DNA from: Candidatus Collierbacteria bacterium | Lineage (GTDB): Bacteria > Patescibacteriota > Microgenomatia > UBA1400 > MFAQ01 | Length of the DNA stretch: 64,000 nt | Direction of reading: 5' to 3' | Assembly (NCBI GenBank): GCA_903884375.1 | Contig: CAISER010000041.1 | Span: 9,164 to 73,163, forward strand | Part shown: positions 3,183 to 35,553 of the stretch, in pieces | Numbering within the stretch: the stretch's first letter is position 1 | Layout of the letters: each line of letters starts with the position of its first letter | Made by a program: the position numbers and the translations under genes | Notes under the pieces: model-generated | The model's database searches: none | Told to the model about the DNA's origin: nothing | Seen by the model: the letters and a program-made list of their open reading frames with translations, nothing else

Positions 3183-3213
3183 AACATTTCTTTATATGGT
3201 TTAATTAATTGAT

Positions 3214-3639: not shown

Positions 3640-3640
3640 A

Positions 3641-7977: not shown

Positions 7978-8213
7978 AGAGTTGGTCTGTATATATAGTA
8001 GAGTGTGTTGACGGAAGTTTTTATACCGGAATAACCGAAGATATTGATAATCGTTTGCGTGTTCATAATGCCGGAAAGGGGGCAAAATACACCCGAGGAA
8101 GAAGACCGGTAATTCTTCGATATGTGGAAAAAATGGCCGGTAAGAGTGAAGCTCTTAAGAGAGAAAACGAGATTAAAGGTTTAAAAAAGAGCCAAAAAAT
8201 GCGATTGTGGTAA
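7974..8213 (+). CDS. GIY-YIG nuclease-domain protein (UPF0213-like)
   Basis: 79 aa. The WSVYIVECVDGSFYTGITEDIDNRLRVH matches the GIY-YIG core. Confidence 0.7.
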   Translation: MKSWSVYIVECVDGSFYTGITEDIDNRLRVHNAGKGAKYTRGRRPVILRYVEKMAGKSEALKRENEIKGLKKSQKMRLW

Positions 8214-8240: not shown

Positions 8241-8585
8241 TTGGAGGTTAAGATGTCAGAGCCGGTGTTTATGGACAATGATTTGGGCGGTGTAGTGTAT
8301 GTAAGTAAAAATGAATTAAGATTGATATTTAAGAATGGTGTCGATTATGTAATAAAAGTTGATACAACCGAGCTACTTAATGTTTTAGAAAATCGATCAA
8401 AAAAGAGTATTGAAACAATAAATTACATAATCGAGCCAATGTATTACGACTCAGAAGGGGCTTTGTTATCGCTTATTACCATCAAAAACACCAGACAGTA
8501 TGAAGATAGAGCCTTGGTATTCCATTGTGATTTAAAAGAAGCCTTAACCAGAATTAAAAATAAAAGTTATCCCTCTGCCATGTAG
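8241..8585 (+). CDS. hypothetical protein
   Basis: 114-aa AT-rich host-like ORF. It is the last gene before the compositional shift at about 8.6 kb. Confidence 0.35.
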   Translation: MEVKMSEPVFMDNDLGGVVYVSKNELRLIFKNGVDYVIKVDTTELLNVLENRSKKSIETINYIIEPMYYDSEGALLSLITIKNTRQYEDRALVFHCDLKEALTRIKNKSYPSAM

Positions 8586-8822
8586 GTAGAGGGATTTTTG
8601 TGGCTAAACAATGATCCGGGTGAGATAATCAAGTCATGTCGTTAAAAGTAGGCACTTGAACTATACAGTGCCACTTTTTCAATTCACCTTTTCATTCCAA
8701 CTCCCCAGACCCCGAAAAGACCGTTTGATCGTACTTCGTGACAAACTTGGTCGAATCCTCAAGGCTGAAACTCCAAAACCATTATTCGCTATACCGGGAA
8801 GGGGTGCCCCATAACTGAACTT

Positions 8823-9194
8823 ATGCAATGCACATATCTCAAACAAGACGGAAGCCAATGCAGCGCAAACGCGATGAAAGAGTCGCAGTTTTGTTTTAGT
8901 CATAACCCCGACACTCAAACGGAAAAGCACCTTGCCACGGTGAAGGGTGGAGAAAACAGCCGCTCGATTGAACTCAATCTCCCGCCTGTTGAGCTACAAA
9001 AGCCAGAACATGTTGTGTGTATGCTCGGAGATACTATCAACGGTGTCCGTAGCGGGGAAATACCGCCCAATATCGCCAATACAGTCGGATATTTAGCTGG
9101 TCATCTTTTGAAAGCCATGGAAGTTGCTAATCTTGCCGGTAGGCTTGAGTTGGTCGAAAGTGTTCTTATTGAAAGAAAGATGAGGACACGGTGA
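8823..9194 (+). CDS. hypothetical Cys-rich small protein (first gene of the element)
   Basis: 123 aa with a CTYLKQDGSQCSANAMKESQFCFSH Cys/His cluster, a possible zinc ribbon. Higher-GC codon usage. Its stop lies 8 nt before the next ORF. Confidence 0.4.
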   Translation: MQCTYLKQDGSQCSANAMKESQFCFSHNPDTQTEKHLATVKGGENSRSIELNLPPVELQKPEHVVCMLGDTINGVRSGEIPPNIANTVGYLAGHLLKAMEVANLAGRLELVESVLIERKMRTR

Positions 9195-9201
9195 GGAGTT
9201 T

Positions 9202-10767
9202 ATGTCCAACCTAAATCTTGCAACCACTGGTAAATACTTTACGCCGAAAGAGCGGGTAAAGCTCGTCATTGCGCTTCAGTTACGGATACTTGCCGAGAAA
9301 CCCAATAAAGATACAAAAAAAGACGAGGAGTCTACATTATCCGTATCAACCAGACGGGAGATACACGAGATTGTCAATTCATGTCCACAACGTCAGGCGT
9401 CGGACTATAACTTTTATGTTGACCTCAAGCAATATGTCTGGGAGCATATTGTTGATGAAATCCGAGAACATGTTCTTGCGATTGAGCTGATGAATGGCAA
9501 TATCGCTCCGCTTCGGTATTTATTGAGCATTAGTCCCTATCTATCAGAAATAGTCAGTGAGCTCAAACGGTTGCCCGTGATTGTCCAGAAAGAAGAATAC
9601 GACAAAGCTATCGTTGATGCGCGAATACACGAGCGCTCCGAAATACTGCCGCTTGATGGAGCATATGACCTTGCCAAACAGGAAGCATATTACCGTTTGA
9701 TTGGCGAAAAACTGATTGACACACCTGAATATGAGTCATATCGGGATTATATGGTTGTATTTGGTCGTTCAAAAGATGAGTTGTTTCAGGAGAAAGTCCA
9801 GTCTATCCGAAAAGATATCGATAAATATCAAAAACGAAAAGACCGTATGGGTGGTGAGGCTCCTTTCAATAATTACATTGAGCCCTATATTGGATTGTCA
9901 GATAAGGAAATAATCGAAAAAGTCGAAAAGGATTATCAGGGGTACTTTGATATTCCGGGAAAGGAAGAACATGACCGATGGGTGAGTTTAGTTGACGAAG
10001 AACGGAAACGGATTCAGCACGCGGTTGATATCGGTGCGCTTGTCAAAAAGAAAAATGGCATTGAATCTGGCAGCTATTACGACTGGAAAGACCGACGCCA
10101 GAAGTTCGCCGGAGACCCAGGCGTTGGAGACCGACATTGGAATCCGTTACATGAAGATTGTATGGAAATCGGATTTTCAGATGGAAAAGTTACGTCGGGT
10201 GCACGTGCCAAAAAAGGCGACTGGCGTCAAATTATTGCTGTGACCGTCCACAATAAAAACTCGATGGGGTATGCGGGAGATGATTTCGGTACGAAGCGAT
10301 TGGAGAGTGTCATAGATATGGTATCTGCACTTGTGCCGTTGGATGTATCGGATAAAGATTTTGACTCGGAGGAACGCAGGTTTTCTATTCGGGTTGGTGA
10401 TTATAAAGCGATGTTTCAAAAGTTTGCCAACAATACCCGCAGGGAAATACAGGAGATAGTAAATAAAATAGCGCTTATCAATGCGATAGAGGACATATAT
10501 TTTGATGGGATGCAGATTGTGGTTCCGGGTGAAATTGATGGGGTGTTGACGGTAGATAAAATGCTGCATCATGCGATGAATGTTATCTCTGAACACAACG
10601 ATGCAATCCGGGATATGATAATCAGTTTCAATAAATTGAGTTTTGGTTTCTGGGACTACAGATTGGATGACAAGGACTCATATTTGATTGACGCAAGTCC
10701 GGGTGTAGATGAAAAATGGGTTTATACTGAGCTTGAACAGGTGAAACTGAAACTACTCAGTAGATAA
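9202..10767 (+). CDS. hypothetical protein (521 aa), element cargo
   Basis: Long uninterrupted ORF with no P-loop, TM segment or other recognisable motif. Tightly packed with its neighbours on the same strand. Confidence 0.55.
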   Translation: MSNLNLATTGKYFTPKERVKLVIALQLRILAEKPNKDTKKDEESTLSVSTRREIHEIVNSCPQRQASDYNFYVDLKQYVWEHIVDEIREHVLAIELMNGNIAPLRYLLSISPYLSEIVSELKRLPVIVQKEEYDKAIVDARIHERSEILPLDGAYDLAKQEAYYRLIGEKLIDTPEYESYRDYMVVFGRSKDELFQEKVQSIRKDIDKYQKRKDRMGGEAPFNNYIEPYIGLSDKEIIEKVEKDYQGYFDIPGKEEHDRWVSLVDEERKRIQHAVDIGALVKKKNGIESGSYYDWKDRRQKFAGDPGVGDRHWNPLHEDCMEIGFSDGKVTSGARAKKGDWRQIIAVTVHNKNSMGYAGDDFGTKRLESVIDMVSALVPLDVSDKDFDSEERRFSIRVGDYKAMFQKFANNTRREIQEIVNKIALINAIEDIYFDGMQIVVPGEIDGVLTVDKMLHHAMNVISEHNDAIRDMIISFNKLSFGFWDYRLDDKDSYLIDASPGVDEKWVYTELEQVKLKLLSR

Positions 10768-10834
10768 TAAGCTAACGCAAATGTATTTTAAGCGTTCCGA
10801 GTTACAATAGGTGATAGTATAATGATTTATATAT

Positions 10835-13800
10835 ATGGCAAATACTGGCGGTGAACCGATTCCTGGCGCTTCGGGGTTTCCCACTGGGAAAGAGAATTTA
10901 TCTTCAGGACAATCAGAATTAAAATCCGCTATAAGCACCGGTCTTGATGCCTGTTTTGCTACTTTAGTAAATAAGGATATTGAGCCTCGTGATCGGGCTG
11001 GTGCAATCCGTCAATTTGAGAAAATAGTAAACGATTTATCTGGAGATGTTGCTATTATTATGAATGATGAACTTGTTCAAAAAACACAAGACCTAATATT
11101 TCAATCAATGACAGTTGACCCTGATAGATTTTTAACCTGGGGTCTAGATGAAGCAAAAAATATTTTGCAAATACTGCATCTGCCTCGGTCATTTCGTCAA
11201 ACTGACGATCGAATAAGTAGTCTGACTAGCCTGATTCAATTTACACAAGGTAGTTATCAAAGAAACAGGGTCGAAAATTTTGTAAAGCTATCAAAGCTAT
11301 TTGAAATACCTTCTCGAATAATTGATGACCCCGATATTCAACAAAAAATGCCCAGGTTAGATGTAGATTATAAAGGTAAATTCAAAACTTCACCTGATGC
11401 ATGTGCCGATTATTTGAATAATTGGTTTTCTAAATCTCAAAGATCTTCAGTTTTAGGCAAGGCAGTTCAATATTTTTGTGAAAATTATGTCCAATATCCT
11501 AGTGATAGCCCATCTTCAGGTATACATGATTTCGTTCAATTATTCTCATCAGTGCAAGACTTGTCGCTTTCAGAAATTCAACGGGTTATTACTGACGGTA
11601 TTGTTAAAAATATTGAATCCGAAGAGTATTTTCATTCAGAGCAGATCGTTACGTTAGCTACCGGATTTGAAGTAACGTCACAATTACAGCAAGATGTAAA
11701 CGCGATATCGGCCGCACAGAAAAGAATTATTAAAGAACTTGAAAATGGGAGAGAAAATTATGTTGCTCATAACGTTAACTTACTAGAAGATTTTTTTCAA
11801 TTTGGTCAAGAATTTAAATCGAGTATAGAATTCCAAGATGCCTTTAGTAAGGGTTTTGAGAAATATCTTCAAAAGAAAGCGTTTCGGCATCCAGATTATT
11901 CACCGGATGAAGAAGATGTAAACGAATGGAGATTATTATTTAATAAATTTGGTATATCACAAGAATTAAATGATCAGATTGTTGTTAATGCGATAAGGGC
12001 TGAATGCCGCGATCTTATTTCCGAAAATGAGCAGGGATATTCGAAAGGTGATGCTGATGTGGTTTTAGCGTTGACGAAGACAGAGTTTCTTCAAAATAAA
12101 CAATTAATCCTTAGGGAAGATGTCCAAAAAGATATTGTAGCGGCCATCGTGCATAAATTTGGCGTTCATGTATCGTCACAGTTTTTGGCAAAGATTCCTC
12201 TTACAAATGAGAGTTTGACGAACGAGGATATTACCGAGATTGCTAAATTAAAATTTCAAAAAGAAACACGCTCTGTGTTGTCACCTAATCGAGTAAATCT
12301 AGCAAAATCACTGCAGGAAAAATTTGGATTAGATCGATCGTTTGTGATTGAATGTTTGAGGAACGGAATTAGCCATGATGTTAATTTTGGTTTCAATTAT
12401 GACGGGATCAAATCTGCAAGAGAAGTCTTTCAATTAAGTGACGAGGAGTTTTTCCAATCTATTGCAGACGGACTTGTAATATCTACTCGTAGTAAGGAAA
12501 AGTATCATGGGAACTTGCCCGAACAATTGGAGCATTTGTTGGAAAATAGGAAAAAATATCCTGACAGCATTCCACCTGACGATATTTTATTAACTGCTTT
12601 ACCACTAGCTGTTCGAGATGTTTTAAAAACTGCGGATAAACCAAATGAAGTAATTGCTTTGAATAAATTTTATAGAACTTTAGATGGTCAGGCTGGAATA
12701 TTTGATAATAAGGAAGTACAAGACGCATACAAATTTGCTATCGAAAGATGGCTAGGGGCTGGAGATGTTTCTGCTGCACAAAAAATATGTAGCCTACTTA
12801 ATAAGGATAATAACCCAACGGTCAGTGATAGTACTTTGAAAGACGAATCAATTGGCAAACTGGTTGACGATATAGTGGCTAGATATATATTGGGAGAAAG
12901 CTCTTACGATTTACAATATGGCGCAATCCAGCTCCATGCTCTGGCTCCGTTTATTGATAGGCCGGTGAGAAATGAAGATGCAAAACAAAAATTAAATACT
13001 ATAATACTCAGCGCATATCAAAAAAGTTCCAGTGAATTAAAAGAGTTTTCTCAGCTGTACAGTGCCTTTCATCTGCCAGAAGAGGATCGAGTGAGATTAA
13101 CTGAATTATGTGTACAGACAAGTATGCATCCATCAAAAATAGGATCGGATTTGGTGAAATTGAATAATGCGTTAAACATTCTTGGAGAGCAAAATTCAGA
13201 AGCAGTTATATTGCAACGACTTCCTAAATATCTTGATACTGTAAAAACAAATTTTGCGCTTACAGGGATTGCTGAAATTTCTGAATTCGTTCGTGATCAC
13301 GAAGAGTACTTTGAATTTTTAGCGACCACTCCCGATACAGCGAGCCAATTAACACCCGAGGATATGAATTTGATAGTAAATATACCGATTGGAAAAGATA
13401 TGATTATTGCAGAACTTGCTAAACGAGATGGTATTGATCTTGCCAAAATAGAAACAGAAGAAGATTACCGAAGATTATTCACCGCGGTTCGAGGAAATTA
13501 TAAAGAATGGACAGATGAACAAAACATATCAGGTCCATTTGAAGCTGGCGCAAACATTTTTGGGTACAAACGCATGTTTGCTTATATACAGAGGGAGAAT
13601 TTGAGTTATCATGATGCACTTCATGCGTTTCAAAGTATCATTAATTTTTATCAAACTTCTGGTTTAACTCCCGATCAATTTTATGGTCAAATATTGAGCC
13701 ATGTTATGAGAGATGATGCTGTGTACAATGCGGGAACCGCTCACCATCAGTTGAATGAAATCGCAACGACACTTAACACAGATTATACTGAAAACCTAGA

Positions 13801-15745
13801 ATTAGCGAGAGAATTTTCTGATCTTGAGGGTGTTGGGGATTTGGCTACGTTATTTTCTTCACCTGAACAGGTATTCGCAAGCTGGAACAATCTTAAACGA
13901 TATAGCAAGTTGACCCAACTATTAGGAGAACGAGAGGTATTGGAGGCACTGCATGATATAAAAAATCCGAAATTACGCACGTATGTAACACGTCTTGCTT
14001 TCCATAGGGATAGTAAAGTCGATATACAAGCGGCGATCCAATTTGCTACAGATCCAATGGCATTCTTGGAGCGTGATGACGGGCATGCGCCACCGGAAGT
14101 TCATGATCGGAAAAAACCATCCAATTATATTGAAATTCCCAATCTTGACCTTACTGCACAAGAACTTGTTGAAGCCTTAGTTGATGGGAAAATGGATCCG
14201 CTCTCCGCGTTTACACCTATGGAGGTTGAATACACCGTTATTATTGATGAGGCGGCATCGCGACCGCATGAATTATTGAAACGAGCCCTTGGTGCCCGTG
14301 CGAAAGAAGGAGCGGATGCAATACCAGGTGAAGCGCGTGATCCCAAAAAACTATATTCAGAAGTTGGTCACTTGTTGAAACCAACTGGACTTAATGTCCA
14401 ACAATATCTTGCAGGGGTGGTCTTACCTGATACTGCGAAATCTGAAATCGAACAAAAACTCGTCACCATTCTGTTTAATGAACAATATGGGTTACGAAAA
14501 ACTGCGGTAAAAACCCAAACCTACGTTGCGAAAATCGGGAAGAAAAGCGATCCGGACATGGTGTTAGCCGGTGATGATACCGTTAACTGTATGCCGTTTG
14601 GATCAGGGAAAAACACGGTCTATACGTTTAATCCTAATACCGCACAATTTGTCCTCCAAGTTGTTCGACCCGACGGAAAACGACGAACCATCGCTCAAAG
14701 CGTTATCACAAAAGATATTGACATCAAAAAATCAATTCCAACTGTTATTCAACAATTGCAAGAAGAAGGCGGTCACTTAGTTGATGTGCTCCCTGAGGAT
14801 GCGCTTCTTCGACAATCTGCCATCATAGCATGCGATAATGTAGAAGTTTCTCCTAATTTTACTGATCAATCCGGAGTTATCACTGCACTCTATCGCGATT
14901 TTTTCCGGCAATATCTTGGGATTCACGCGAAAATTCAAAATTTACGGTCAGATTGCGTTATTGTTGGCGAAGGATATTCTGACGCACTTAATGAACTACC
15001 GGAAATTCCCAATACGTACGCACCACAGGCACCTGTAAGTTATTCAGATGCCACGGGATCTGAAGTGCGTACACTTGAGATGAGTGGAAAAGATCCATAT
15101 GTGATCCTTGAAAGTAATGTAACAGTTGACGAGTTACCACAAATACCAAAAGAAATAAGGCCCCCAATTGAGGGATTAGAATCACTGACGTTCGAACATG
15201 CATTACAAGTCGCCTATATTGAGGGTAAGGCATATTCAAGTAATACATCACTTATTCAATATCTCCACAATATGGAAAATGGGCTCATAGCTAAAGACAT
15301 CAATAATGCCGCAAAAGGACGACCGAATATGAGTCTTGCATATCGGGATAAAGCTGGAAAGATGCAAGGATATATGCTGGCCTACGAAGGAAAAATTAAT
15401 GATACAGATGTTGAGAACTACGCAAGTGAATACACAGAACAACCGTTTCTTTACATTTCCGATATCGCCTCGAATGTTTCTACCGGTGGAACAAATGATA
15501 CTGGATTAAGTCTCCTTCGTGGTTTTATCCAACTCTACAAACAACACTATATTGACGCAGGAAATGCAGTTCCTATATTTGCGCAAATGCGTGAAGAAAC
15601 ATCATATCGAATTGTCCAACGAGGACTACTCAATAGGTTGGTGCGCGATCTAGGTGTTGAGTTTGAGGTGGAAGAGTTGGAAACATATCAGGTAGGCAAT
15701 AGCACAATGCACCCCGTGATAATAAAACCGATAGGCGCGAAGTGA
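10835..15745 (+). CDS. giant hypothetical protein (1636 aa), element cargo
   Basis: 4.9-kb uninterrupted ORF. No signal peptide, TM or Walker motifs were seen, so it is presumably cytoplasmic. No family recognised by eye. Confidence 0.6.
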   Translation: MANTGGEPIPGASGFPTGKENLSSGQSELKSAISTGLDACFATLVNKDIEPRDRAGAIRQFEKIVNDLSGDVAIIMNDELVQKTQDLIFQSMTVDPDRFLTWGLDEAKNILQILHLPRSFRQTDDRISSLTSLIQFTQGSYQRNRVENFVKLSKLFEIPSRIIDDPDIQQKMPRLDVDYKGKFKTSPDACADYLNNWFSKSQRSSVLGKAVQYFCENYVQYPSDSPSSGIHDFVQLFSSVQDLSLSEIQRVITDGIVKNIESEEYFHSEQIVTLATGFEVTSQLQQDVNAISAAQKRIIKELENGRENYVAHNVNLLEDFFQFGQEFKSSIEFQDAFSKGFEKYLQKKAFRHPDYSPDEEDVNEWRLLFNKFGISQELNDQIVVNAIRAECRDLISENEQGYSKGDADVVLALTKTEFLQNKQLILREDVQKDIVAAIVHKFGVHVSSQFLAKIPLTNESLTNEDITEIAKLKFQKETRSVLSPNRVNLAKSLQEKFGLDRSFVIECLRNGISHDVNFGFNYDGIKSAREVFQLSDEEFFQSIADGLVISTRSKEKYHGNLPEQLEHLLENRKKYPDSIPPDDILLTALPLAVRDVLKTADKPNEVIALNKFYRTLDGQAGIFDNKEVQDAYKFAIERWLGAGDVSAAQKICSLLNKDNNPTVSDSTLKDESIGKLVDDIVARYILGESSYDLQYGAIQLHALAPFIDRPVRNEDAKQKLNTIILSAYQKSSSELKEFSQLYSAFHLPEEDRVRLTELCVQTSMHPSKIGSDLVKLNNALNILGEQNSEAVILQRLPKYLDTVKTNFALTGIAEISEFVRDHEEYFEFLATTPDTASQLTPEDMNLIVNIPIGKDMIIAELAKRDGIDLAKIETEEDYRRLFTAVRGNYKEWTDEQNISGPFEAGANIFGYKRMFAYIQRENLSYHDALHAFQSIINFYQTSGLTPDQFYGQILSHVMRDDAVYNAGTAHHQLNEIATTLNTDYTENLELAREFSDLEGVGDLATLFSSPEQVFASWNNLKRYSKLTQLLGEREVLEALHDIKNPKLRTYVTRLAFHRDSKVDIQAAIQFATDPMAFLERDDGHAPPEVHDRKKPSNYIEIPNLDLTAQELVEALVDGKMDPLSAFTPMEVEYTVIIDEAASRPHELLKRALGARAKEGADAIPGEARDPKKLYSEVGHLLKPTGLNVQQYLAGVVLPDTAKSEIEQKLVTILFNEQYGLRKTAVKTQTYVAKIGKKSDPDMVLAGDDTVNCMPFGSGKNTVYTFNPNTAQFVLQVVRPDGKRRTIAQSVITKDIDIKKSIPTVIQQLQEEGGHLVDVLPEDALLRQSAIIACDNVEVSPNFTDQSGVITALYRDFFRQYLGIHAKIQNLRSDCVIVGEGYSDALNELPEIPNTYAPQAPVSYSDATGSEVRTLEMSGKDPYVILESNVTVDELPQIPKEIRPPIEGLESLTFEHALQVAYIEGKAYSSNTSLIQYLHNMENGLIAKDINNAAKGRPNMSLAYRDKAGKMQGYMLAYEGKINDTDVENYASEYTEQPFLYISDIASNVSTGGTNDTGLSLLRGFIQLYKQHYIDAGNAVPIFAQMREETSYRIVQRGLLNRLVRDLGVEFEVEELETYQVGNSTMHPVIIKPIGAK

Positions 15746-15915
15746 GAGCAAAATTTACTTGACCATTTCGCAATAGGAGCATCTGTGTAATTAACGCAAT
15801 ACAAACTTACTGAAATAGTCGTTTTATGGACAGGTCGAACGCTGCTAGTAGGCAGCTTTTTTTGTGGCAATTTTGGCGTATAATGCGCTTGAAGTAGAAA
15901 CAACGTGGAGGAAAT

Positions 15916-17331
15916 GTGGCAGACAATAACAAGCAAATAACAGAACCACCTTTTTCGATTTCCGAGGATGAACGGAATCGGATTGTTTCTTCGATCGAAC
16001 GCAAAATACAAATCATCAAAGATACCGCTACTAATAATGATTATTTTCTTCAGATCGGGGAGTTTTACAAATATCTGATTGGGAGCGATACCATGGTCCG
16101 TTTGATTGATGTGATGTTTTCGGAATTTCGGGATACACAAGCGGAATTTGAAAAATTACGTGGACAGGTCATGGAAGAGGTGAATAAAGTTTTCAATTCG
16201 CTCCTTGGTAAAATAAAGGAGCTCACGTTGTTGTCTGATGATGACATTGCTTTGATTGATGGATATTATAACGGAACGAAAACAAACATAAATAAAGAAG
16301 AAGCAGATAGGCTAAATCGTAATGAGTCCGCATTATTTCGTGCTGTTGCTGGATTTTACTCCTGGGCACGTGGAAAATCGCAAACACTTGGTGGAGAATT
16401 ATTGGAGTATAGTTTACTTCGTGCTACAGAGGATGTGGTAAACGCACTTTATAACTCTGACCATAAAGATTTAGTCCAGCAGTACGTTCAAATTGACGCG
16501 TCAAACCCCGAGAAGCCAATGATTGTCGGCTATAATATCGCTCCGACTGAAAGCAAACTCCGAGAGGAACAGACAATATCCCGTACGAAGTTGGAAGCCT
16601 CTCCGTGGCTTGCATACCAGCGCCTCAAACTTGTACCGCTTTGTCTTTATGATTACGCAGAATTCAAGGCCAAACTGAGCAAGGAAGACAAGCTGGCTGA
16701 TTACATGAATTTTACTGGGACTATGGGTGAATTGAGTGAAGTCATGGCAGGACGGCGCACGCATGAGGCTCATTATTTCCGGCGTGAGTTATACAACTCA
16801 TACCTCCAACGCGTCACCGATAAACTGATTGATTTGATGGATGCTGCGAGTCGCATACCAAAGGGTACACTGAAAAATGTTGACGATGCACCATCGAAGG
16901 AAATATCACTTATAGATATGCCCGAACGACCGAAACAACTCCCCAATAATGATGTAAACAGCGAGTTATGTGCAAAATACTCGTTCAAACCGTCTGATAC
17001 CGGTGGTTACATATTGCGTTACGGAAATAATGATACGGTATCTTTTGGTGAAAATGATGACCTTGCCCGGATGATGCAGATATTTTCCACTTATCCCGAG
17101 CAATGGATTGATTTCAAAACTATTTTTCATTACATGGGTTTTGACTACGAACGTGACCTAAAAACAAAAAATAAACCCTTGCATAAGTTAGTGCGACGGA
17201 TAATCGCAGACATCAGGGACAAAAAATTGAACGAGAAAAGTTTGGGAGACATGATAGTTATTCAATCTGGAAAAGTGGAGCATGGGCCTGTTGGTGAAGG
17301 CTGGTACAGGCTTCATTTCGAAGCTCCATAA
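15916..17331 (+). CDS. hypothetical protein (471 aa), element cargo
   Basis: GTG start 4-5 nt after GGAGGA. No recognisable catalytic motif. The C-terminal roughly 80 aa is basic and could be a winged-helix-like DNA-binding region (guess). Confidence 0.5.
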   Translation: MADNNKQITEPPFSISEDERNRIVSSIERKIQIIKDTATNNDYFLQIGEFYKYLIGSDTMVRLIDVMFSEFRDTQAEFEKLRGQVMEEVNKVFNSLLGKIKELTLLSDDDIALIDGYYNGTKTNINKEEADRLNRNESALFRAVAGFYSWARGKSQTLGGELLEYSLLRATEDVVNALYNSDHKDLVQQYVQIDASNPEKPMIVGYNIAPTESKLREEQTISRTKLEASPWLAYQRLKLVPLCLYDYAEFKAKLSKEDKLADYMNFTGTMGELSEVMAGRRTHEAHYFRRELYNSYLQRVTDKLIDLMDAASRIPKGTLKNVDDAPSKEISLIDMPERPKQLPNNDVNSELCAKYSFKPSDTGGYILRYGNNDTVSFGENDDLARMMQIFSTYPEQWIDFKTIFHYMGFDYERDLKTKNKPLHKLVRRIIADIRDKKLNEKSLGDMIVIQSGKVEHGPVGEGWYRLHFEAP

Positions 17332-17332
17332 C

Positions 17333-17511
17333 ATCTTCGTACACTTCGTATAGTTCGTATATCTTCGGTCAGTAATTCGTATAGCGAATCCTCGTGACGC
17401 TCCAAATCACATACTTTACTATGAGGATAGCACGTGGAAGTAATGTGAGACGAAATTGAAAGTGAAGTGAATCTTCGTTTTCCTCACAAAATACTTCCCT
17501 GACAGAAAAGT
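17333..17511 (+). promoter_or_regulatory. direct-repeat (iteron-like) region upstream of the element's replication module
   Basis: Four to five tandem copies of (C)TTCGTA(T/C)A within about 60 bp (cttcgtaca cttcgtatag ttcgtatat ... ttcgtatagcg), plus GTGAAGTGAA. Non-coding and lies between the cargo genes and the replication genes. Confidence 0.3.
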
Positions 17512-17844
17512 ATGGTCACGATTTCACAAATACAATTAGTACCGGTTCGCTTTACAAACGGTTTGACGTTCTTTGCCGATTTCGTTTTGGACAATCGGTA
17601 TTATATCGGCAATGTTGCCATTTACACACTGATTGATGGAACCGGATTTCGGGTTGTATATCCGACCAAAAAACTCCCTAACGGTCAACAAATCCCTATT
17701 TTCTATCCCACAGACAAAGACATTGCCAAAGAAATACAACAGTTGATTTCTGAGGAAGCAACGAAGTTGTTGCAACCGAAGGAACCAAACAAAACGAGAT
17801 ATTATTTTGGGACAAAAAAACCAGAGATTGAGGAGATTTTTTGA
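17512..17844 (+). CDS. SpoVG-family nucleic-acid-binding protein homolog
   Basis: Pattern I.QIQLVPVRFTNGLTFFADFVLDNRYYIGNVAIYTLIDGTGFRVVYPTKKLPNGQQIPIFYPTDKDIAKEI parallels the SpoVG core (TDVRL..V...G.M.A.AS.TLD..FV.H.IRVI.G..G.FV.MPS.K..DG...I.HP). Confidence 0.5.
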   Translation: MVTISQIQLVPVRFTNGLTFFADFVLDNRYYIGNVAIYTLIDGTGFRVVYPTKKLPNGQQIPIFYPTDKDIAKEIQQLISEEATKLLQPKEPNKTRYYFGTKKPEIEEIF

Positions 17845-17850
17845 AGGGAG

Positions 17851-18276
17851 GTGAACCAAGATATGCCAAAACTAACAGCCAGCAAGCGAGTATTGCCTGA
17901 TGCCGGAAAGCACATGTGTGTGTTGATGGGGGTTTCCGAAGTAGAAAACAAGTTTTATGACCCCAAGAAGGATAAGGCGGACAAAGCGAAACGGCTTGAG
18001 TGGACGTTTCAATACGAGAAAAAGCCGGAGATGCAGATACGGGTATGGTCATCAGCCAACTTATCTATCTACAAAGGTATCAAAAGTAATGCGCTACGCA
18101 TGACGGAAGCGCTACTTGATAAAGAGCTGACGAAGAAAGAAATGGACGAGGGAAATGACACGGACAAGCTCATCGGTAAGAAATGCTTTCTCGAAGTGAA
18201 ACATTTCAAACAGGATGACGGAACGGTATTTGCTAAAGTACGGGATTTTGAAAGTGAAAGTGGAATCCCATTTTAG
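17851..18276 (+). CDS. hypothetical protein with SSB-like C-terminal tip (…FESESGIPF)
   Basis: 141 aa, mixed charge. It ends in an acidic segment plus IPF, as do the C-termini of bacterial and phage SSBs. The chromosomal ssb in this window ends DEIPF. Confidence 0.35.
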   Translation: MNQDMPKLTASKRVLPDAGKHMCVLMGVSEVENKFYDPKKDKADKAKRLEWTFQYEKKPEMQIRVWSSANLSIYKGIKSNALRMTEALLDKELTKKEMDEGNDTDKLIGKKCFLEVKHFKQDDGTVFAKVRDFESESGIPF

Positions 18277-18321
18277 CCTTGATGGTCGGACGTATTTCTA
18301 GGATGCGTCCGGCAATAAGGG

Positions 18322-20391
18322 TTGAAATCTATGAATGAACAATCAAACAATATCACAAAAAGCATGCTTGAACAAGCGCTTGCATATCTCGAAAGAGGTT
18401 GGAGCGTGATTCCTGTTGGTACGGATAAGAAACCGCTTATCGAGTGGAAGAAGTATCAGACAGAATATCCTACACCACAGGATGTCACTGAATGGTTTAC
18501 AAAGTATCCAAGTGCCAATCTTGCGGTTGTAACGGGACGGATATCAAATATCGTTATTGTCGATGTTGATGTTCGTCACAACGGTAGGCGTGATGCGTTT
18601 ATTGGATATGAAACGGTCGTGGCTGAAACAGGAAATGGTTGGCATTATTATTTTCGGTATAAAGATGGAATAAAAAACTTCGTTGGTATTGCTGAAGGTA
18701 TTGATATTAGAGGCGACGGTGGATATGCTATTTTGCCACCTTCAATACATAGCTCCGGTAAGCAGTATAAATGGTACCGTAATCCTGAAAAATATGAAGT
18801 ACTCGGAATATTGCCGGTTGTTCTTGAATGGATAGAAAATAAGAACAAGCAGGTATCATCGCAACAAAGCAATTGGTCGTCAAGAAAATTAGATGGAGCA
18901 AATGAAGGCGAGAGGAATGATACTTCGGCATCAGTAGCCGGTAAACTTCTTGCACGCTTCAAGCCGCATGAATGGGAGAGTGAAGCCTGGAAGCTTCTTC
19001 AATCATGGAACAATGACAAAAATAATCCTCCGCTATCGGAATCTGAGTTGCGGTCAGTTTTTGAGTCTATATCCAAACGGGAGGCACAAAAGCAAAGCGC
19101 AGATTATCCAGAGACTACAGAAATTATCGTACCTAATAATCTTTCACTCGACGAAGTGTTATTGAGAGTAGAACGTATATTGCCCAATAAAGAGGACTTG
19201 GTGCTTTTAGCAATGGCGGTATCTGTCAGTCAGATTATTGATAAAAAGACTCCGGTATGGCTTATGTTCGTAGGAGTGCCATCAAGCGCAAAGACTGAAG
19301 TAGCGCGGATGATTGGAAAAGCCGAGTGGGTTTTTTATCTGGACTCACTCACGGAAAATGCATTTGTCAGCGGGGGTCGGGGAGATACGGCAGACTTATT
19401 ACCGCTTGTTCACGAAAAATGTTTGATTATCAAAGATTTCACAACAACGCTTTCTCAGCGTGAAGAAACCGTACGGAAGATACTTGGCGACCTGACATCA
19501 ATATATGACGATTCGTTTGTCAAACATTCTCCATCAAGAGGTACGATTTCCTATCATTCATTTTTTTCGATATTAGGCTGTGTAACGCCACAGGCGCTCA
19601 ACAATCATCAGCGGTATGTGAGTCAAATCGGTCCACGATTTTTATATTACCGTGTCCAAGCATCCACCCAGGATGAAGTAGAGCAAAGTTTTGAGATTAT
19701 ATGGGCAGTTGGGAATGTTCAACCCGGATTTAGTATTGCTCAAAAGTATGTTTCGGCGTATGTCACGAAGATTGCAGCAGCGTATAACCCTGAATCGTTA
19801 GAGAAGGAAAATCCCGAAACGATTGCGTACATCAATACATTAGCTCGTTTTATTGCACGAGCGCGGGGTATTGTTGTGACCCGAAGCGGAGAGTTTATAA
19901 ATGGGCAGGGTGAAAAAGTTCAGTTTTATGAACCTGTTGAAATCCAAATCGAGGAGCCATTCCGTGCACTCCAACAACTCCGGGTGCTAGCACGGAGTCT
20001 ATGTGTTGTCCTTGGGCATAAAACTGTTGAGAAGCGAGTGCTCAAACTTCTCAAAGATGTTGCGATTTCCAGTATGCCAGCAGATAGAGCCTTACTTCTA
20101 TCCGTCGTCGCCTCGGAAAAGAAATCATGGTCAGCAAAAGAAGTATCAGACGTATTGGGTATTTCCCATAGGACTGCGCTTCGTCAGCTTGATGAGTTGT
20201 CATCACTGCGGGTGTTGCACAAACAGGGGCAAGGCGCTGGTTTATCAAACGTCTATACCGTATTAGATGAGTTCTCCCAATTTTTGTATAGCGGAGTGGA
20301 GTTTCTGTCACGCCTCCGCAATTCACCAACCGTGACACAAACTACGCAACGGGTAGATACGCAACTTGAGCTCGGAGGGAATAAGTCATGA
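18322..20391 (+). CDS. replication protein: bifunctional primase-polymerase N-terminal domain plus degenerate P-loop/helicase-like domain plus C-terminal wHTH
   Basis: N-terminus LERGWSVIPVG.DKKP...W.KYQTE.PT..DV.EWF..YP.ANLAVVTG...IVIVDVDV...G and DIRGDGGYAILPPSIH..GKQYKW is the Prim-Pol signature. Mid-region VGVPSSAKTE is Walker-A-like with Ala at the conserved Gly. The C-terminal VSDVLGISHRTALRQLDEL resembles an HTH. Confidence 0.65.
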   Translation: MKSMNEQSNNITKSMLEQALAYLERGWSVIPVGTDKKPLIEWKKYQTEYPTPQDVTEWFTKYPSANLAVVTGRISNIVIVDVDVRHNGRRDAFIGYETVVAETGNGWHYYFRYKDGIKNFVGIAEGIDIRGDGGYAILPPSIHSSGKQYKWYRNPEKYEVLGILPVVLEWIENKNKQVSSQQSNWSSRKLDGANEGERNDTSASVAGKLLARFKPHEWESEAWKLLQSWNNDKNNPPLSESELRSVFESISKREAQKQSADYPETTEIIVPNNLSLDEVLLRVERILPNKEDLVLLAMAVSVSQIIDKKTPVWLMFVGVPSSAKTEVARMIGKAEWVFYLDSLTENAFVSGGRGDTADLLPLVHEKCLIIKDFTTTLSQREETVRKILGDLTSIYDDSFVKHSPSRGTISYHSFFSILGCVTPQALNNHQRYVSQIGPRFLYYRVQASTQDEVEQSFEIIWAVGNVQPGFSIAQKYVSAYVTKIAAAYNPESLEKENPETIAYINTLARFIARARGIVVTRSGEFINGQGEKVQFYEPVEIQIEEPFRALQQLRVLARSLCVVLGHKTVEKRVLKLLKDVAISSMPADRALLLSVVASEKKSWSAKEVSDVLGISHRTALRQLDELSSLRVLHKQGQGAGLSNVYTVLDEFSQFLYSGVEFLSRLRNSPTVTQTTQRVDTQLELGGNKS

Positions 20392-20502
20392 GAGGCATTA
20401 CTCCGATTTCATTTAGCTTCGTTTATATGGATAAACCAGAAAGTCCAGATAGGCTGTCCGATGCATATCGCGGGATTTTCATCCAAGCATGGAAAAACAT
20501 AG

Positions 20503-20730
20503 TTGACAAACAAAGTACAGCAAAGTACAGTGGGGGTACGCATGACACAACAACCGACTCAGGACGAGTTTCTAACAATCGAGGAAGTAGCCAAGATTCT
20601 CAAAGTGACCAATGTAACGCTCTACCGAATGGCACGGAAGGGAAAAATCCCGGCGGTGAAGTTCGGCAAAGCGTGGAGAATAAGTTCACGACTCCTCGAG
20701 TCACTTCGTGAGGGAAAGAAAGTTATATGA
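20503..20730 (+). CDS. excisionase-family helix-turn-helix DNA-binding protein (candidate recombination directionality factor)
   Basis: FLTIEEVAKILKVTNVTLYRMARKGKIPAVKFGKAWRISSRLLESL matches the excisionase/MerR-type HTH consensus. The real start is probably the internal Met near 20542. Lies directly upstream of the recombinase. Confidence 0.7.
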   Translation: MTNKVQQSTVGVRMTQQPTQDEFLTIEEVAKILKVTNVTLYRMARKGKIPAVKFGKAWRISSRLLESLREGKKVI

Positions 20731-22382
20731 TTTCAACAATAACACCAATCAAACAAACGAAAATTGCAGCGTATTACGCCCGTGTGAGCACCGCCCGGCA
20801 AGAGGTGCAGGAAACAATAGACTCACAGTTGGATGAACTCAAAGCCCGAATCATTGCTGATGGCAATACGCTCCCGGAAGAAAATATGTTTCAGGATGAT
20901 GGCTGGACCGGCGAAATGCTCGAAAGACCAGGGCTTGATGCTATGCGTGATGCAGCATCGGACGGAAAGTTTGAAATCCTCTATGTGTATGACCGCGGCC
21001 GATTATCCCGTATTTTTGCTTACCAGGAGATTATTCTTGAGGAGATAAATAATCGTGGAATTGAGTTTGTGACGCTTCATGATTTACAAGCCAGAACACC
21101 AGAGGAACATGTATTACAGGCAATGCAGGGAGTTTTTCATGAGTACGAGCGGGTAAAGATTGTTGAGCGGTTTCGCCGTGGAAAACTGCATAAAGCCAGA
21201 AACGGCATACTTATCAATGGTCAGGCACTTTATGGTTACCGGTATGTCAAAAAGACGGAGACAGAACCCACTCACTATGAAATCAATGAAGATGAAGCAA
21301 AAGTAGTCCGCATGATTTTTGAGTGGGTAGCGCGTGAGCGGCTATCTGTGTATGAGATACGCAGGAGATTGTATCAGCTCAAAATCATACCACGTAAAGC
21401 AAAAAATCCTTATTGGACTCGTGGACCGATTATCCGAATGCTCCGCACGGACTCATATCTAACTGGCATTGTTTATTACAACAAATCTGAAGCCATAGTT
21501 GCCAAAAAACCACTCAAACACGACAAATATAAAAAGATAAAGCGGACAAGCAGGAAAGTCCGACCGCGTGAAGAATGGATACCATATCATGTCGCTCCGA
21601 TATTGGAAAACAACGGAATATACGAACGGGTACAAGACGTGTGCGATTACTATAAAAAGTTTCAACCGAAAAATAAGAAATATGATTACTTACTCTCAGG
21701 TTTAGTGTGGTGTGAATGTGGTGAGCGTCGAGTCGGGGACGGATACCATAAAGGTGGAAATCATTATTATCGTTGTATTGAGAAAGTGAAAAAGTTTCCG
21801 CTTATGGAAGTCAACTGTTATGCACACGGAGTCAACGCCGTTATCGTCGATGGGCTGTTGTGGCAGAAACTCCGGGGATTTTTATCAGACAAGACACAAA
21901 TGCGCGAACAGGCAGTCAACTTTTTCAAAGAAGAAATGGTAAAAAGCTCTGTAGGTCAAAGAGAAAAACAACGGTTGATGCTGCAACTGCAACAAGCCAA
22001 GGATGAGGACCTTCGATATGCCCGCGCCTTCGGTAGTGGTGCTATTGAAGAAGAGCAACTCAAAATCCTTACCGCTGAGTTGAGAAAGAAAATACAGTCG
22101 TATGAAGCACAACTCCGCGAAATAAATACACATTCATTTGACGGTGTTATTGATGAGCAAAAGATAGATGCACTATGTGATGAGTCTCAAAGGGTGATAG
22201 AATCATGGTCACAACAGGACAAAAAGAAAACTGTTCAGGATATAATAGATAAAGTAACAATTTTTGATGAAGGAAAGGTGAGGGTGGAGGGGCATGTGCC
22301 TCAATTCGCCCAATACATGGGATATGAACTTACGCATAGGAATTGTTGGTTTGCCAAATGTAGGGAAATCTACCTTATTTAA
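20727..22382 (+). CDS. large serine recombinase (integrase)
   Basis: N-terminal resolvase domain with the catalytic Ser in AAYYARVSTARQ, followed by a recombinase domain and a Cys-rich zinc ribbon (CECGERRVG...YYRCIEK) and a coiled-coil C-terminus. 551 aa. Its 3' end overlaps the ychF start. Confidence 0.85.
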   Translation: MISTITPIKQTKIAAYYARVSTARQEVQETIDSQLDELKARIIADGNTLPEENMFQDDGWTGEMLERPGLDAMRDAASDGKFEILYVYDRGRLSRIFAYQEIILEEINNRGIEFVTLHDLQARTPEEHVLQAMQGVFHEYERVKIVERFRRGKLHKARNGILINGQALYGYRYVKKTETEPTHYEINEDEAKVVRMIFEWVARERLSVYEIRRRLYQLKIIPRKAKNPYWTRGPIIRMLRTDSYLTGIVYYNKSEAIVAKKPLKHDKYKKIKRTSRKVRPREEWIPYHVAPILENNGIYERVQDVCDYYKKFQPKNKKYDYLLSGLVWCECGERRVGDGYHKGGNHYYRCIEKVKKFPLMEVNCYAHGVNAVIVDGLLWQKLRGFLSDKTQMREQAVNFFKEEMVKSSVGQREKQRLMLQLQQAKDEDLRYARAFGSGAIEEEQLKILTAELRKKIQSYEAQLREINTHSFDGVIDEQKIDALCDESQRVIESWSQQDKKKTVQDIIDKVTIFDEGKVRVEGHVPQFAQYMGYELTHRNCWFAKCREIYLI

Positions 22383-35544: not shown

Positions 35545-35553
35545 AATGATGTA

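Follow-up and report, generated by a model that had tools for sequence, protein, structure and literature searches.

The element and its limits

Sequence at the 5' end of ychF in a Candidatus Collierbacteria genome raises two questions: whether it is a mobile element and, if so, how it can lie within this coding sequence and leave the encoded protein intact. An element of about 13.7 kb had been proposed at this position in an earlier note on the window, the whole 64,000-nucleotide stretch that was analysed. The proposal is borne out, with limits now sharpened by a 4-bp core: positions ~8653-22340 (13.69 kb) are a real mobile element, integrated by a serine integrase in a Patescibacteria genome. 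It very probably belongs to a new Patescibacteria family that combines ychF-targeting integration, an apparently split integrase, Prim-Pol replication and variable cargo; this family (about 9-14 kb) is previously undescribed.

The GC content is 41.3% within the element versus 36.7% across the remaining window, a real shift but a smaller one than the rise from ~35% to 43-47% first estimated, and between 10.5 and 13.5 kb, inside the element, it falls to 0.34-0.37. GC skew is lower within the element, and the tetranucleotide distance, measured against the remaining window, averages 144 for the element versus 93 (sd 12) outside. The profile proposed as a check, by GC and tetranucleotide frequency, is therefore not uniform and is anomalous inside the element. 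The element holds 10 ORFs and a split int tail, not thirteen genes; the ORFs lie where they had been placed, all on the + strand, as are the host genes flanking the element. Upstream of attL, the last feature that clearly belongs to the host is an intrinsic-terminator-like hairpin (8569-8595, + strand; 11-bp stem, then a T run) at the 3' end of a host 114-aa gene. Domain matches substantiate the proposed serine integrase, HTH excisionase and Prim-Pol protein, and searches of Pfam, PHROGs, NCBIfam and PADLOC gave, as expected, no match for capsid, terminase, tail or conjugation genes. The conclusion that the element is neither a prophage nor an ICE is supported.

Integration into ychF

Both ends of the element carry a ychF start. 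At attL (8636-8652, + strand) the orphaned native 5' end, ATG TCG TTA AAA GTA GG, encodes M-S-L-K-V-G and has an SD-like GGGTGAG upstream and a stop two codons downstream. At attR (22324-22340, + strand) an element-borne surrogate start, ATG AAC TTA CGC ATA GG (M-N-L-R-I-G), opens a hybrid ychF of 348 aa (22324-23370, + strand) that is host sequence from 22341 on. A YchF from another sample (P0290) is identical to that of the window at 343 of 348 residues (99%), three of the five differences being at residues 2, 4 and 5, and its N-terminus, MSLKVG, is the peptide encoded at attL. Given that the attL peptide is the N-terminus of P0290 and the window YchF starts MNLRIG, the crossover is placed within the core TAGG, with copies at 8649-8652 (attL) and 22337-22340 (attR), and the surrogate start within the 3'-terminal part of int. 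The empty site, for which the earlier note had suggested a search, thus appears to be represented by P0290 at the protein level. Two integrase variants of the same 90%-identity cluster (P0286 and P0287) are identical to the window integrase up to ...THR and diverge from it exactly past the core AGG, an integrase at least 90% identical is joined to another ychF allele, and MNLR[IV]G is the YchF start in the window element and in two relatives, L082 and L096. As had been noticed, int stops early in ychF: its stop (22382) is 58 nt past the ychF start (22324).

In the reading favoured here, the large serine integrase recombines attP with attB in ychF codons 5-6 at the core TAGG, the attB position being the sequence for the conserved xGIVGLPNVGK start of YchF, and integration has left the native start (MSLKVG) orphaned at attL. 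Because the replacement start (MNLRIG) lies at the right end of the element, within the 3' end of int, YchF stays intact; its expression would presumably now rely on element sequences. No long flanking repeats were found around the element, as expected for a serine integrase, and dyad symmetry was not demonstrable in the reconstructed junctions (attP, ...TTACGCATAGGCACTTGAAC...; attB, ...GTCGTTAAAAGTAGGAATTGTTGG...). The most unusual features of the element are the orphaned ychF start, the element-borne surrogate start and an int frame that continues across attP.

An apparently split integrase

The large serine integrase, 551 aa as integrated (20727-22382, + strand), has Resolvase (2e-25), Recombinase and Zn_ribbon_recom domains. 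Codons 1-538 are encoded by the element and the last 13 codons of the integrated form are ychF in another frame. Across the reconstructed attP the int frame continues for 53 codons (HLNYTVPLFQFTFSFQLPRPRKDRLIVLRDKLGRILKAETPKPLFAIPGRGAP*), now at 8653-8814 (+ strand), and the 53-aa tail peptide is also found at the left ends of the related elements L084 and L085, with two copies in the latter (tblastn 9e-11, 9e-11 and 4e-9). Directly before each copy is a remnant of the ychF start, [A/G]TG GAA ATT GG, or CTA GAA ATT GG in L085a, and the codon register is that of int at all four attL sites. Conservation of the 53-codon frame at three other attL sites suggests that the integrase exchanges its tail on integration; judged from sequence, the element's own int gene appears to be cut in the process. 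With attP inside the int frame, the integrase made from the excised form would have 591 aa and end in the conserved 53-aa tail; on integration this tail would come to lie at the opposite end of the element, and 13 out-of-frame ychF residues would take its place. Such a swap would report the integrated or excised state and bias directionality, perhaps in partnership with the xis-type HTH protein, the conserved ORF overlapping xis, or both. Alternatively, the tail frame could be translated as a small separate protein when integrated, there being start codons nearby. Neither the circular junction nor a 591-aa integrase was found, and the attP junction is absent from IMG/VR.

Related elements and horizontal transfer

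On four Patescibacteria contigs (L082, L085, L088 and L096) int overlaps ychF at the same position, followed by rpsF-ssb-rpsR. Insertion at the same site was judged at the int/ychF junction, where the elements align with a core of [AG]TAGG; for L082, L088 and L096 no left boundary could be located. Between the window element and L082 the integrases are 82% and the Prim-Pol proteins 77% identical, whereas the host proteins are 57% (YchF), 51% (SSB) and 46% (CtpB) identical. An integrase 82% identical between hosts whose YchF is only 57% identical indicates horizontal transfer, and the conclusion that the phylogenies of element and host disagree is supported.

It could be argued that the region is no active element but what is left of a decayed prophage, or a part of the chromosome that was inherited vertically. 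The Prim-Pol gene of L096 is split, so decay does occur in the family, and the failure to detect an excised form would fit such a reading. However, it is highly improbable, for several reasons: the backbone genes of the window element are all intact and remnants of structural genes were not found; none of 80 ychF loci from other genomes has the element genes; a YchF that is 99% identical has the native N-terminus; the element proteins are far more alike between hosts than are housekeeping proteins; and the integrase at least 90% identical to that of the window is joined to a different ychF allele.

Replication module and backbone

The backbone common to the family consists of Prim-Pol, xis, the large serine integrase and a ~140-aa protein whose tip resembles that of SSB. 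In the window, the 689-aa replication protein (18322-20391, + strand) contains Prim-Pol (1e-29) and PriCT_1 domains and gives weak HTH matches at its C-terminus; by our own reading of the sequence it may also contain a degenerate P-loop domain. It has 433 matches, of which the named members are Patescibacteria. The 141-aa protein (17851-18276, + strand; NGO0469 family, 3e-8) has the SSB-type tip noticed before, its end ...ESESGIPF resembling the ...SDEIPF of the host SSB. This protein is kept in related elements (4e-80 to L082), its more distant counterparts in L088 and L089 giving a weak DUF669 match, and is a candidate ssDNA-binding or replication accessory protein. The excised circle would be replicated by the Prim-Pol protein, aided by this 141-aa protein. 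The adjacent 110-aa protein (17512-17844, + strand) does match SpoVG, as had been suggested, but weakly (4e-5) and below the Pfam cutoff; in relatives its slot is taken by DUF5659 proteins.

The xis-type HTH protein (TIGR01764 excisionase, 1e-13) has 62 aa from the ATG at 20542 (20542-20730, + strand; ORF open from 20503) and overlaps the int start by 4 nt. A 107-aa ORF (20388-20711, + strand), conserved over its N-terminal ~48 aa, overlaps xis in another frame, and this frame is open across xis in all seven elements tested, the chance of its staying open after synonymous shuffling being 0.002-0.02 per element. The 471-aa protein (15916-17331, + strand) is weakly related to proteins of L083 and L084 (21 bits over about 150 aa, E about 2e-6 against a database of 540 sequences) that share its position just upstream of the replication module. 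Given this weak kinship and the same position, it is probably part of the backbone, as a regulator or replication accessory protein.

The cargo block

The left half of the element is a cargo region that varies between relatives, filled in the window by genes for proteins of 123, 521 and 1636 aa and followed by a terminator-like hairpin (15841-15866, + strand). The 123-aa protein (8823-9194, + strand) combines a Cys-rich knuckle in its N-terminal part (C-x8-C-x11-C-x2-H) with a helical C-terminus, and matches DUF5763 (0.013) and phrog_9747 (1e-4, of unknown function); variants at least 90% identical to it lie on other contigs, one of 131 kb. The 521-aa protein (9202-10767, + strand), predicted to be mostly helical, has no match in Pfam, PHROGs, NCBIfam, PADLOC, PDB sequences, or phage or plasmid records, and its single-sequence AF2 model (pLDDT 36) is unusable. 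The 1636-aa protein (10835-15745, + strand) has a variable helical N-terminal part of ~790 aa and a conserved C-terminal part of ~846 aa (13205-15742) that ends in a GNAT-fold domain (about 15180-15742). HMM and structure searches on the cargo, as advised at the outset, yielded a GNAT fold in this protein and nothing for the 521-aa protein.

Most invariant residues of the 1636-aa family fall in a GNAT-like domain that precedes the terminal one. This domain weakly matches tandem-GNAT and N-myristoyltransferase structures (the tandem-GNAT enzymes compared being N-myristoyltransferase and MshD-type), but the protein differs from known GNAT acyltransferases in that its best match to Pfam GNAT models is not significant (E = 0.12) and the same chain carries, besides the GNAT module, about 1200 aa of helical sequence. 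No known counterpart was found for its invariant motif KSDPxGVxAGNDTACCMPFGSGKN.

Four ORFs (these three and the 471-aa gene) had been described as lacking recognisable motifs, which is right for Pfam, but the 1636-aa protein has hundreds of homologues in a widespread uncharacterised family with a conserved C-terminus and highly variable N-termini. At 78 other loci its neighbours are housekeeping genes, with no conserved neighbour and no relative of the 123-, 521- or 471-aa proteins; it is normally a stand-alone gene. Given this, and the weak backbone kinship of the 471-aa protein, the four ORFs do not form the coherent undescribed system once proposed. The 1636-aa product is a large helical protein with terminal GNAT-type acyltransferase folds, very probably taken from the stand-alone family.

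A narrower proposal is that the three-gene block occupies a cargo hotspot and acts as a system in conflict with phages or other elements, with the GNAT module as an effector that acylates a target and the variable helical N-terminus as a sensor. The block, which has a terminator of its own, forms a separate transcription unit, the enzymatic C-terminus is conserved in the family and the N-termini vary greatly, and relatives hold restriction-modification, Fic and ABC ATPase genes at the equivalent position. Nevertheless, this is unlikely: PADLOC gives no match for any of the three proteins or for 41 members of the 1636-aa family, the 78 loci beside housekeeping genes have no conserved partner, relatives of the 123- and 521-aa proteins are never near them, and the pattern resembles a stand-alone cellular gene, not a defence operon.

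Comparison with known systems

Because genes for particles or conjugation are lacking from the element, its transfer would have to use a helper phage, as satellites do, or DNA uptake. PICIs/SaPIs and P4-like satellites are likewise integrative, of about 10-15 kb, with an integrase, an excisionase-type HTH protein, a Prim-Pol/PriCT_1 protein, no virion genes and a variable accessory region. The equivalent left half of the element's relatives varies in content, with type I restriction-modification, a ResIII helicase with a methyltransferase, Fic or an ABC ATPase. The element differs from these satellites in its serine integrase (a tyrosine integrase is usual in satellites), in its host phylum, Patescibacteria, and in the lack, in the window copy, of terS or capsid-remodelling genes; nor was it detected among collected viral contigs. 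It is possible, if doubtful, that the element is a PICI-like phage satellite, induced by a Patescibacteria helper phage and packaged in its capsids, the 123-aa and perhaps the 521-aa protein redirecting packaging; this would be a more specific version of the mobile element favoured here and no contradiction of it. The size of 13.7 kb, the int, xis and Prim-Pol/PriCT_1 set and the absent structural genes are consistent with it, as are the Terminase_2 (small terminase)-like genes of two relatives only, L085 and L089, and the defence-type cargo of several relatives (all those genes listed above except the ABC ATPase), the variable hotspots of P4-like and PICI satellites typically carrying defence cargo. 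Against it, the window element has no terminase-like match in Pfam or PHROGs, its 123-aa protein shows no detectable kinship to the relatives' Terminase_2 proteins, no helper phage is known, and the family is nearly absent, and the attP junction absent, from the 2.9 million viral contigs of IMG/VR.

Tycheposons of Prochlorococcus, reportedly described by Hackl et al. as small integrative elements with mostly tyrosine recombinases and tRNA targets, also join a site-specific recombinase to a primase/replication module and to cargo that varies, and do so in a streamlined genome without conjugation, whereas in the family described here the recombinase is a large serine enzyme and the target is the coding sequence of ychF. 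As with the SSV-type integrases of archaeal fuselloviruses and plasmids, attP would lie within the integrase frame, and integration would carry part of the gene away to the opposite end. The SSV integrases are tyrosine recombinases whose gene loses its N-terminal part to the split and is inactivated, whereas the serine recombinase of the element would lose only its 53-aa C-terminal tail, with catalytic and DNA-binding domains intact. In the mycobacteriophages BPs, Brujita and Charlie, integration by a tyrosine integrase is said (Broussard et al. 2013) to truncate the repressor, whose tail was reportedly shown to be a degradation tag. There too attP lies within a coding sequence and integration alters a protein C-terminus, and with it how the protein behaves, but the element would truncate a serine integrase, and its tail function is inferred. 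Finally, the three-domain recombinase, the short core and insertion inside a coding sequence are features of other large-serine-recombinase elements (A118 at comK, SPbeta at spsM, phiC31 and SCCmec Ccr). Those usually disrupt their target, whereas the element restores ychF with its own start and first five codons, and the partner of its recombinase is a Xis/MerR-type HTH protein in an IS607-like arrangement.

Insertion of the element in ychF

The finding of an integrated element at the 5' end of ychF, made in the earlier note, and its core interpretation are upheld overall: a serine-integrase element has inserted in codons 5-6 of ychF and has itself restored the ychF frame. The int stop does fall inside the 5' end of ychF as claimed, with the stop at 22382 lying 58 nt past the ychF start at 22324, where the gene begins with MNLRIGIVGLPNVGKS. 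An exact-sequence cluster look-up identified a YchF from another sample (P0290) that is identical to the window's YchF at 343 of 348 residues, and three of the five differences are residues 2, 4 and 5, the N-termini being MSLKVG in P0290 and MNLRIG in the window. To the left of the element, 8636-8652 reads ATG TCG TTA AAA GTA GG, the codons of M-S-L-K-V-G, with an SD-like GGGTGAG upstream and a stop two codons downstream; this stretch is the native 5' end of ychF, orphaned by the insertion. Given that the M-S-L-K-V-G of attL is the N-terminus of P0290, the crossover is placed within the common TAGG, found at 8649-8652 in attL and 22337-22340 in attR, and the element extends over ~8653-22340 (13.69 kb). 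The element supplies codons 1-5 of ychF as it now stands. As an independent check, two integrase variants on JGI contigs that fall in the window integrase's 90%-identity cluster, P0286 and P0287, match the window integrase through ...MGYELTHR (codons CAT AGG) and then diverge at once, which is the pattern expected for the same element in another ychF allele.

As a large-serine-recombinase element, the insertion combines a three-domain recombinase with a short common core, the matching empty site being seen at the protein level only. Evidence for the uninterrupted junction sought by the earlier note came from a protein, P0290; a metagenome scan for the empty site with the host 114-aa protein, encoded by the last host gene before attL, gave no match. 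The predicted empty-site sequence, directly after the 114-aa gene and its terminator, is GGGTGAGATAATCAAGTCATGTCGTTAAAAGTAGGAATTGTTGGTTTGCC. No long flanking repeats were found at the element ends, as expected with a serine integrase, dyad symmetry in the reconstructed attB and attP gave no significant signal, and repeat and dyad searches for att sites returned chance-level matches. A crossover at 8816 (TGAACTTAyGCA, a 12/14 match to 22325) was rejected because ychF would lose its start codon, and an 11-nt match to the attL core in the related contig L088 is due to chance and located within an ABC-ATPase gene. The sequence TGAACT(A/T)(T/A) occurs three times, at 8656-8664, 8816-8823 and 22325-22332, that is on both crossover arms and just upstream of the 123-aa gene start; it could be a candidate binding site, with a triple occurrence that is not significant against shuffles (39/500).

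The cysS-attL-element junction is also present on a second, independent assembly contig, which excludes an assembly artefact as the source of this arrangement. Vertical inheritance of these genes as part of the core was tested and is contradicted by 80 ychF loci retrieved without any element gene. Among one-genome-per-species contigs the closest YchF proteins are from Patescibacteria (Levyibacteriota, Woesebacteria, Daviesbacteria and others), with identities of 57% or less, and the downstream order ychF-rpsF-ssb-rpsR-ctpB is kept in these relatives.

An integrase gene predicted to span attP

When the right end of the element is joined to its left end at the core, the int frame continues for 53 more codons, CAT AGG being followed by CAC TTG AAC, and ends at a TAA at 8812-8814, 8 nt upstream of the 123-aa gene start. 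The peptide encoded by this continued frame begins HLNYTVPLFQFTFSFQLPRPRKDRLIVLRDKLGRILKAE. The left ends of two related elements carry conserved versions of this peptide, one in L084 (E 9e-11, 58% identity across 38 aa) and two in L085 (E 9e-11 and 4e-9), and each starts immediately after a remnant of the ychF start, which reads GTG GAA ATT GG in L084, ATG GAA ATT GG in L085b and CTA GAA ATT GG in L085a; the N-terminus of L085's own YchF is MEIG. In the integrated form the integrase is of 551 aa, and its final 13 residues come from ychF in another reading frame. At 4/4 attL sites the peptide shares its codon register with int at attR. It is possible that the tail peptide is made as a separate small protein instead, and the protein collection searched does not contain the predicted 591-aa integrase. 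Frame continuity, conservation and register together indicate that the excised form would encode a 591-aa integrase. The position of attP within the int ORF, as in SSV-like partition, is supported by reconstruction and conservation and not by a direct view of the circle. The predicted attP junction sequence is GGGATATGAACTTACGCATAGGCACTTGAACTATACAGTGCC; its 20-mer is absent from viral contigs, and no circular junction was found there.

Given a fused enzyme, the excised circle would produce an integrase of 591 aa with the conserved tail, and the tail swap upon integration may act as a switch between integrated and excised states that affects directionality or stability. The directionality factor would be Xis and/or the product of an ORF overlapping xis, and ychF would be expressed from element sequences. 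This raises the possibility, which we advance tentatively and would stop short of calling probable, that serine integrases with attP in their own CDS serve as a state sensor setting the direction of recombination, with the ychF start replaced and expression of the host gene tied to the element. Should the tail swap control directionality, it would be a novel mode of regulation in serine integrases, enzymes that are in wide use for genome engineering. Partition of an integrase or other coding sequence on integration has known analogues in the SSV-type tyrosine integrases and in the integration-dependent immunity of mycobacteriophages. The element resembles the SSV-type arrangement in having attP in the int ORF and differs from it in that the enzyme is a serine recombinase and not an SSV-family tyrosine recombinase. 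We know of no description of such an attP-within-CDS tail swap for serine recombinases, and the literature consulted, whose incomplete coverage makes it weak evidence, described neither elements of this kind nor a serine integrase gene spanning attP.

Two tandem attL-like sites are present in L085 at 3076-4453, each with a ychF-start remnant and a copy of the integrase-tail peptide, and they flank only one GNAT gene and one NYN gene (1.4 kb). They could represent what is left of an earlier insertion, or else a small integrase-less cassette that uses the same site.

Related elements at the same target

A word-indexed search with the Prim-Pol protein returned 433 relatives, of which the full-length ones are 42-77% identical and the named ones are from Patescibacteria. 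The contigs of eight of these were examined, and homology was confirmed for the ~140-aa protein, Prim-Pol, xis and integrase; a DUF5659 protein usually precedes this backbone in the relatives, with the SpoVG-like protein in its place in the window. In L082, L085, L088 and L096 the insertion site is the same as in the window and the hosts are different: int overlaps ychF by 55-58 nt in the first three and by ~255 nt in L096, where the int frame is open longer, and rpsF-ssb-rpsR follows downstream in all four where the contig is long enough, with extra genes between ychF and rpsF in L085 and L096. The core is [AG]TAGG in 5/5 junctions and lies within the (I/V)-G codons of the conserved xGIVGLPN motif. 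The element of L089 is inserted elsewhere, at a different site.

Comparison of the window with L082 gives 82% identity for Int and 77% for Prim-Pol, as against 57% for YchF, 51% for SSB and 46% for CtpB among the host proteins, and this discordance in sequence identity strongly suggests that the element moved horizontally between hosts. Prim-Pol is split in L096 (7376-9493) into ORFs of 165 aa and 478 aa, which is therefore a decaying copy. The left halves of the relatives' contigs vary from element to element. That of L084 holds a ResIII helicase and an N6/N4 methyltransferase, both of which lie within the element because attL is located at ~756, and that of L085 holds a Terminase_2 gene. The left part is occupied by a type I restriction-modification system and a Terminase_2 gene in L089, by Fic and an Ltp lipoprotein in L083 and by an ABC ATPase in L088; the left boundary was not found in these three contigs, and membership of these genes in the element is therefore not certain. 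The genomes of Patescibacteria are tiny, and few routes are known by which they exchange genes. The family, whose members have one precise target, bear restriction-modification and other cargo and evidently pass between distant hosts, shows accessory-gene movement in this phylum. The junction anatomy further defines exactly the attB and attP of a new serine-integrase group that targets a highly conserved coding sequence, the P-loop region of YchF.

Gene content and class of the element

All ORFs listed by the earlier note are on the + strand where it had placed them, and most of its assignments were confirmed. The 551-aa protein is a large serine recombinase (Resolvase 2e-25, Recombinase 8e-12, Zn_ribbon_recom 4e-7; PHROG phrog_95 integrase 6e-67), the ORF directly upstream of int (20503-20730) encodes an excisionase-family HTH (TIGR01764, 1e-13) and the 689-aa replication protein has Prim-Pol (1e-29) and PriCT_1 (3e-13) domains. 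The C-terminus of the 141-aa protein, ...ESESGIPF, resembles the host SSB tip ...SDEIPF as proposed, and endings of this type are retained in its homologues; Prim-Pol together with this protein strongly suggests a replication module. Similarity of the 110-aa protein to SpoVG was found but is weak (4e-5), under the Pfam cutoff. The compositional anomaly is real but more modest than had been estimated by eye, with a GC of 41.3% within the element versus 36.7% in the remaining window and a dip to 0.34-0.37 at 10.5-13.5 kb; the mean tetranucleotide distance to the rest of the window is 144 for the element versus 93 ± 12 outside, and GC skew drops within it. A second island was considered for the low-GC stretch at 33-42 kb and rejected, the genes there being ordinary membrane and housekeeping genes. 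This stretch (33000-42300, GC 0.32-0.33) encodes Lgt, a pseudouridine synthase, a Na+/H+ exchanger, TPR and DUF5656 proteins and, at 41353-42306, a XerC/D-like tyrosine recombinase, and looks like ordinary chromosome rich in membrane proteins.

That the element is neither a prophage nor an ICE was likewise sustained: Pfam and PHROGs gave no capsid, portal, terminase, tail or lysis genes and tblastn no match in phage records, and there were no relaxase, coupling protein or type IV secretion matches in Pfam or NCBIfam. PADLOC defence models identified no system, the sole match being that of xis to a MADS1-type HTH, which is a generic HTH_17. Scans of viral contigs with the 1636-, 521- and 471-aa proteins, Prim-Pol and two family alignments gave zero or 1-2 distant loci, and the element family is nearly absent from IMG/VR (2.9 million viral contigs). 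The gene set is satellite-like (PICI-like). With PICI-like satellites the element shares an integrase, a primase/replication module, a size of ~10-15 kb and the absence of virion genes; it differs from them in that packaging-hijack genes (terS, capsid-size or packaging redirection) are absent from the window in Pfam and PHROGs searches, small-terminase-like Terminase_2 genes being found only in the relatives L085 and L089. The element belongs among the small integrative replicative elements, with the PICIs, P4-like satellites and tycheposons. Its unusual features are a target inside a conserved coding sequence, where the 5' end of the gene is replaced by the element, a conserved ORF overlapping xis and Patescibacteria as the host phylum, to which may be added an integrase gene that is predicted to be partitioned on integration.

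An ORF overlapping xis

In the window an ORF at 20388-20711 (frame 0) overlaps xis at 20542-20730 (frame +1), and the same arrangement is present in L082, L083, L084, L085, L086, L088 and L096. The ORF is of 107-119 aa and begins at the Prim-Pol stop (ATGA overlap), and conservation covers its N-terminal ~48 aa (phmmer 6e-42 to 6e-7). Its frame is open through the entire xis in every element, and synonymous shuffling of xis left it open in just 0.2-2% of trials per element (7/7 elements). On these coding-sequence data it is probably a genuine overlapping gene, and its product a candidate partner of the integrase.

Cargo proteins and the 1636-aa family

The points of interest are the junction anatomy and an uncharacterised GNAT-tailed protein family. 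Of the claim that the cargo is without recognisable motifs, the profile searches left one part standing, with no significant match for the 123-, 521-, 1636- and 471-aa proteins in Pfam, PHROGs, NCBIfam or PADLOC, but the 1636-aa protein proved to have many homologues. An exhaustive HMMER search with its residues 438-1636 found 475 clusters (302 at E <= 1e-30), the best at 67% identity, whereas a word-indexed search had returned its own cluster only; given this false negative, 'no homologue' from an indexed search is untrustworthy for such proteins. Members are of 526-5715 aa, with 33-67% identity over the last ~770-860 residues and unrelated N-termini, and have no match in Pfam, PADLOC or PDB sequences. 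An alignment of 41 members has the invariant motifs KSDPxGVxAGNDTACCMPFGSGKN, RTIAQSVLTKD, ACDNIEVAPN, LHNMENxLIAKDINN and ARExTSY, among others; C462, K447 and E547 (numbering of alignment A2) are invariant too. AlphaFold2 on this alignment gave a model of residues 791-1636 with pLDDT 88 and pTM 0.81. The C-terminus has a GNAT fold, its best match among curated GNAT-family sequences being PF22559 (E = 0.12), and a conserved AGG loop between beta4 and alpha3 of the family consensus is a candidate acyl-CoA-binding motif. Most of the invariant residues lie in the domain preceding the GNAT, whose strands and helices follow a GNAT-like order by reading of the DSSP string and which matches tandem-GNAT and N-myristoyltransferase structures more weakly; in the first ~330 residues of the model the structure is helical. 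In a viral structure library (BFVD fold search) the C-terminal region had GNAT matches only.

Across 78 metagenome loci and three further contigs the family gene stands alone, without a conserved partner, and recurrent neighbours, each at no more than 7/78 loci, include housekeeping genes (IMPDH, LepA, PurA, PurB, MgsA). Relatives of the 123-, 521- and 471-aa proteins, Prim-Pol and this integrase were never near a family gene at the examined loci. The proposal that the four unplaced ORFs are one undescribed system is not supported and the 123-521-1636 block is rejected as a conserved system, given zero co-occurrence of the three across the 78 loci. The 1636-aa protein is most likely a transferase of cellular type that depends on acyl-CoA, has a variable targeting region and was captured as cargo. 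It reveals a large uncharacterised domain family, which comprises no fewer than 475 clusters at the 50% identity level, contains a GNAT module, lacks a Pfam model and merits its own description. A large serine recombinase is found within 6 kb of a family gene in 5/78 loci, including L131 (8388-9740), and some members may also reside on other mobile elements. In assembly ERZ1426665, from the same population, the 1636-aa gene is called as 204 and 1397 aa (window 10835-11449 and 11552-15745), which suggests a sequence difference or an assembly error near 11450-11550 in one of the assemblies.

The 471-aa gene is separated from the upstream block by a terminator at about 15841-15856. Its product aligns weakly over ~150 aa with a 603-aa protein of L083 (21 bits, E about 2e-6 in a 540-sequence database), which in turn matches a 379-aa protein of L084, and each of the three is encoded just upstream of the replication module; by position and sequence the 471-aa protein may be regarded as a backbone component that evolves fast. 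The 123-aa protein has a Cys-rich knuckle at its N-terminus and variants at least 90% identical on other contigs; its identification as a small terminase was rejected because it does not resemble the Terminase_2 proteins encoded by the relatives. For the 521-aa protein, a single-sequence AF2 model had a pLDDT of 36 and is unusable. Two genes upstream of attL, at 7974-8213, is a stand-alone GIY-YIG nuclease-domain gene (79 aa, 8.5e-21), and L089 too has a small GIY-YIG gene, immediately after its integrase.
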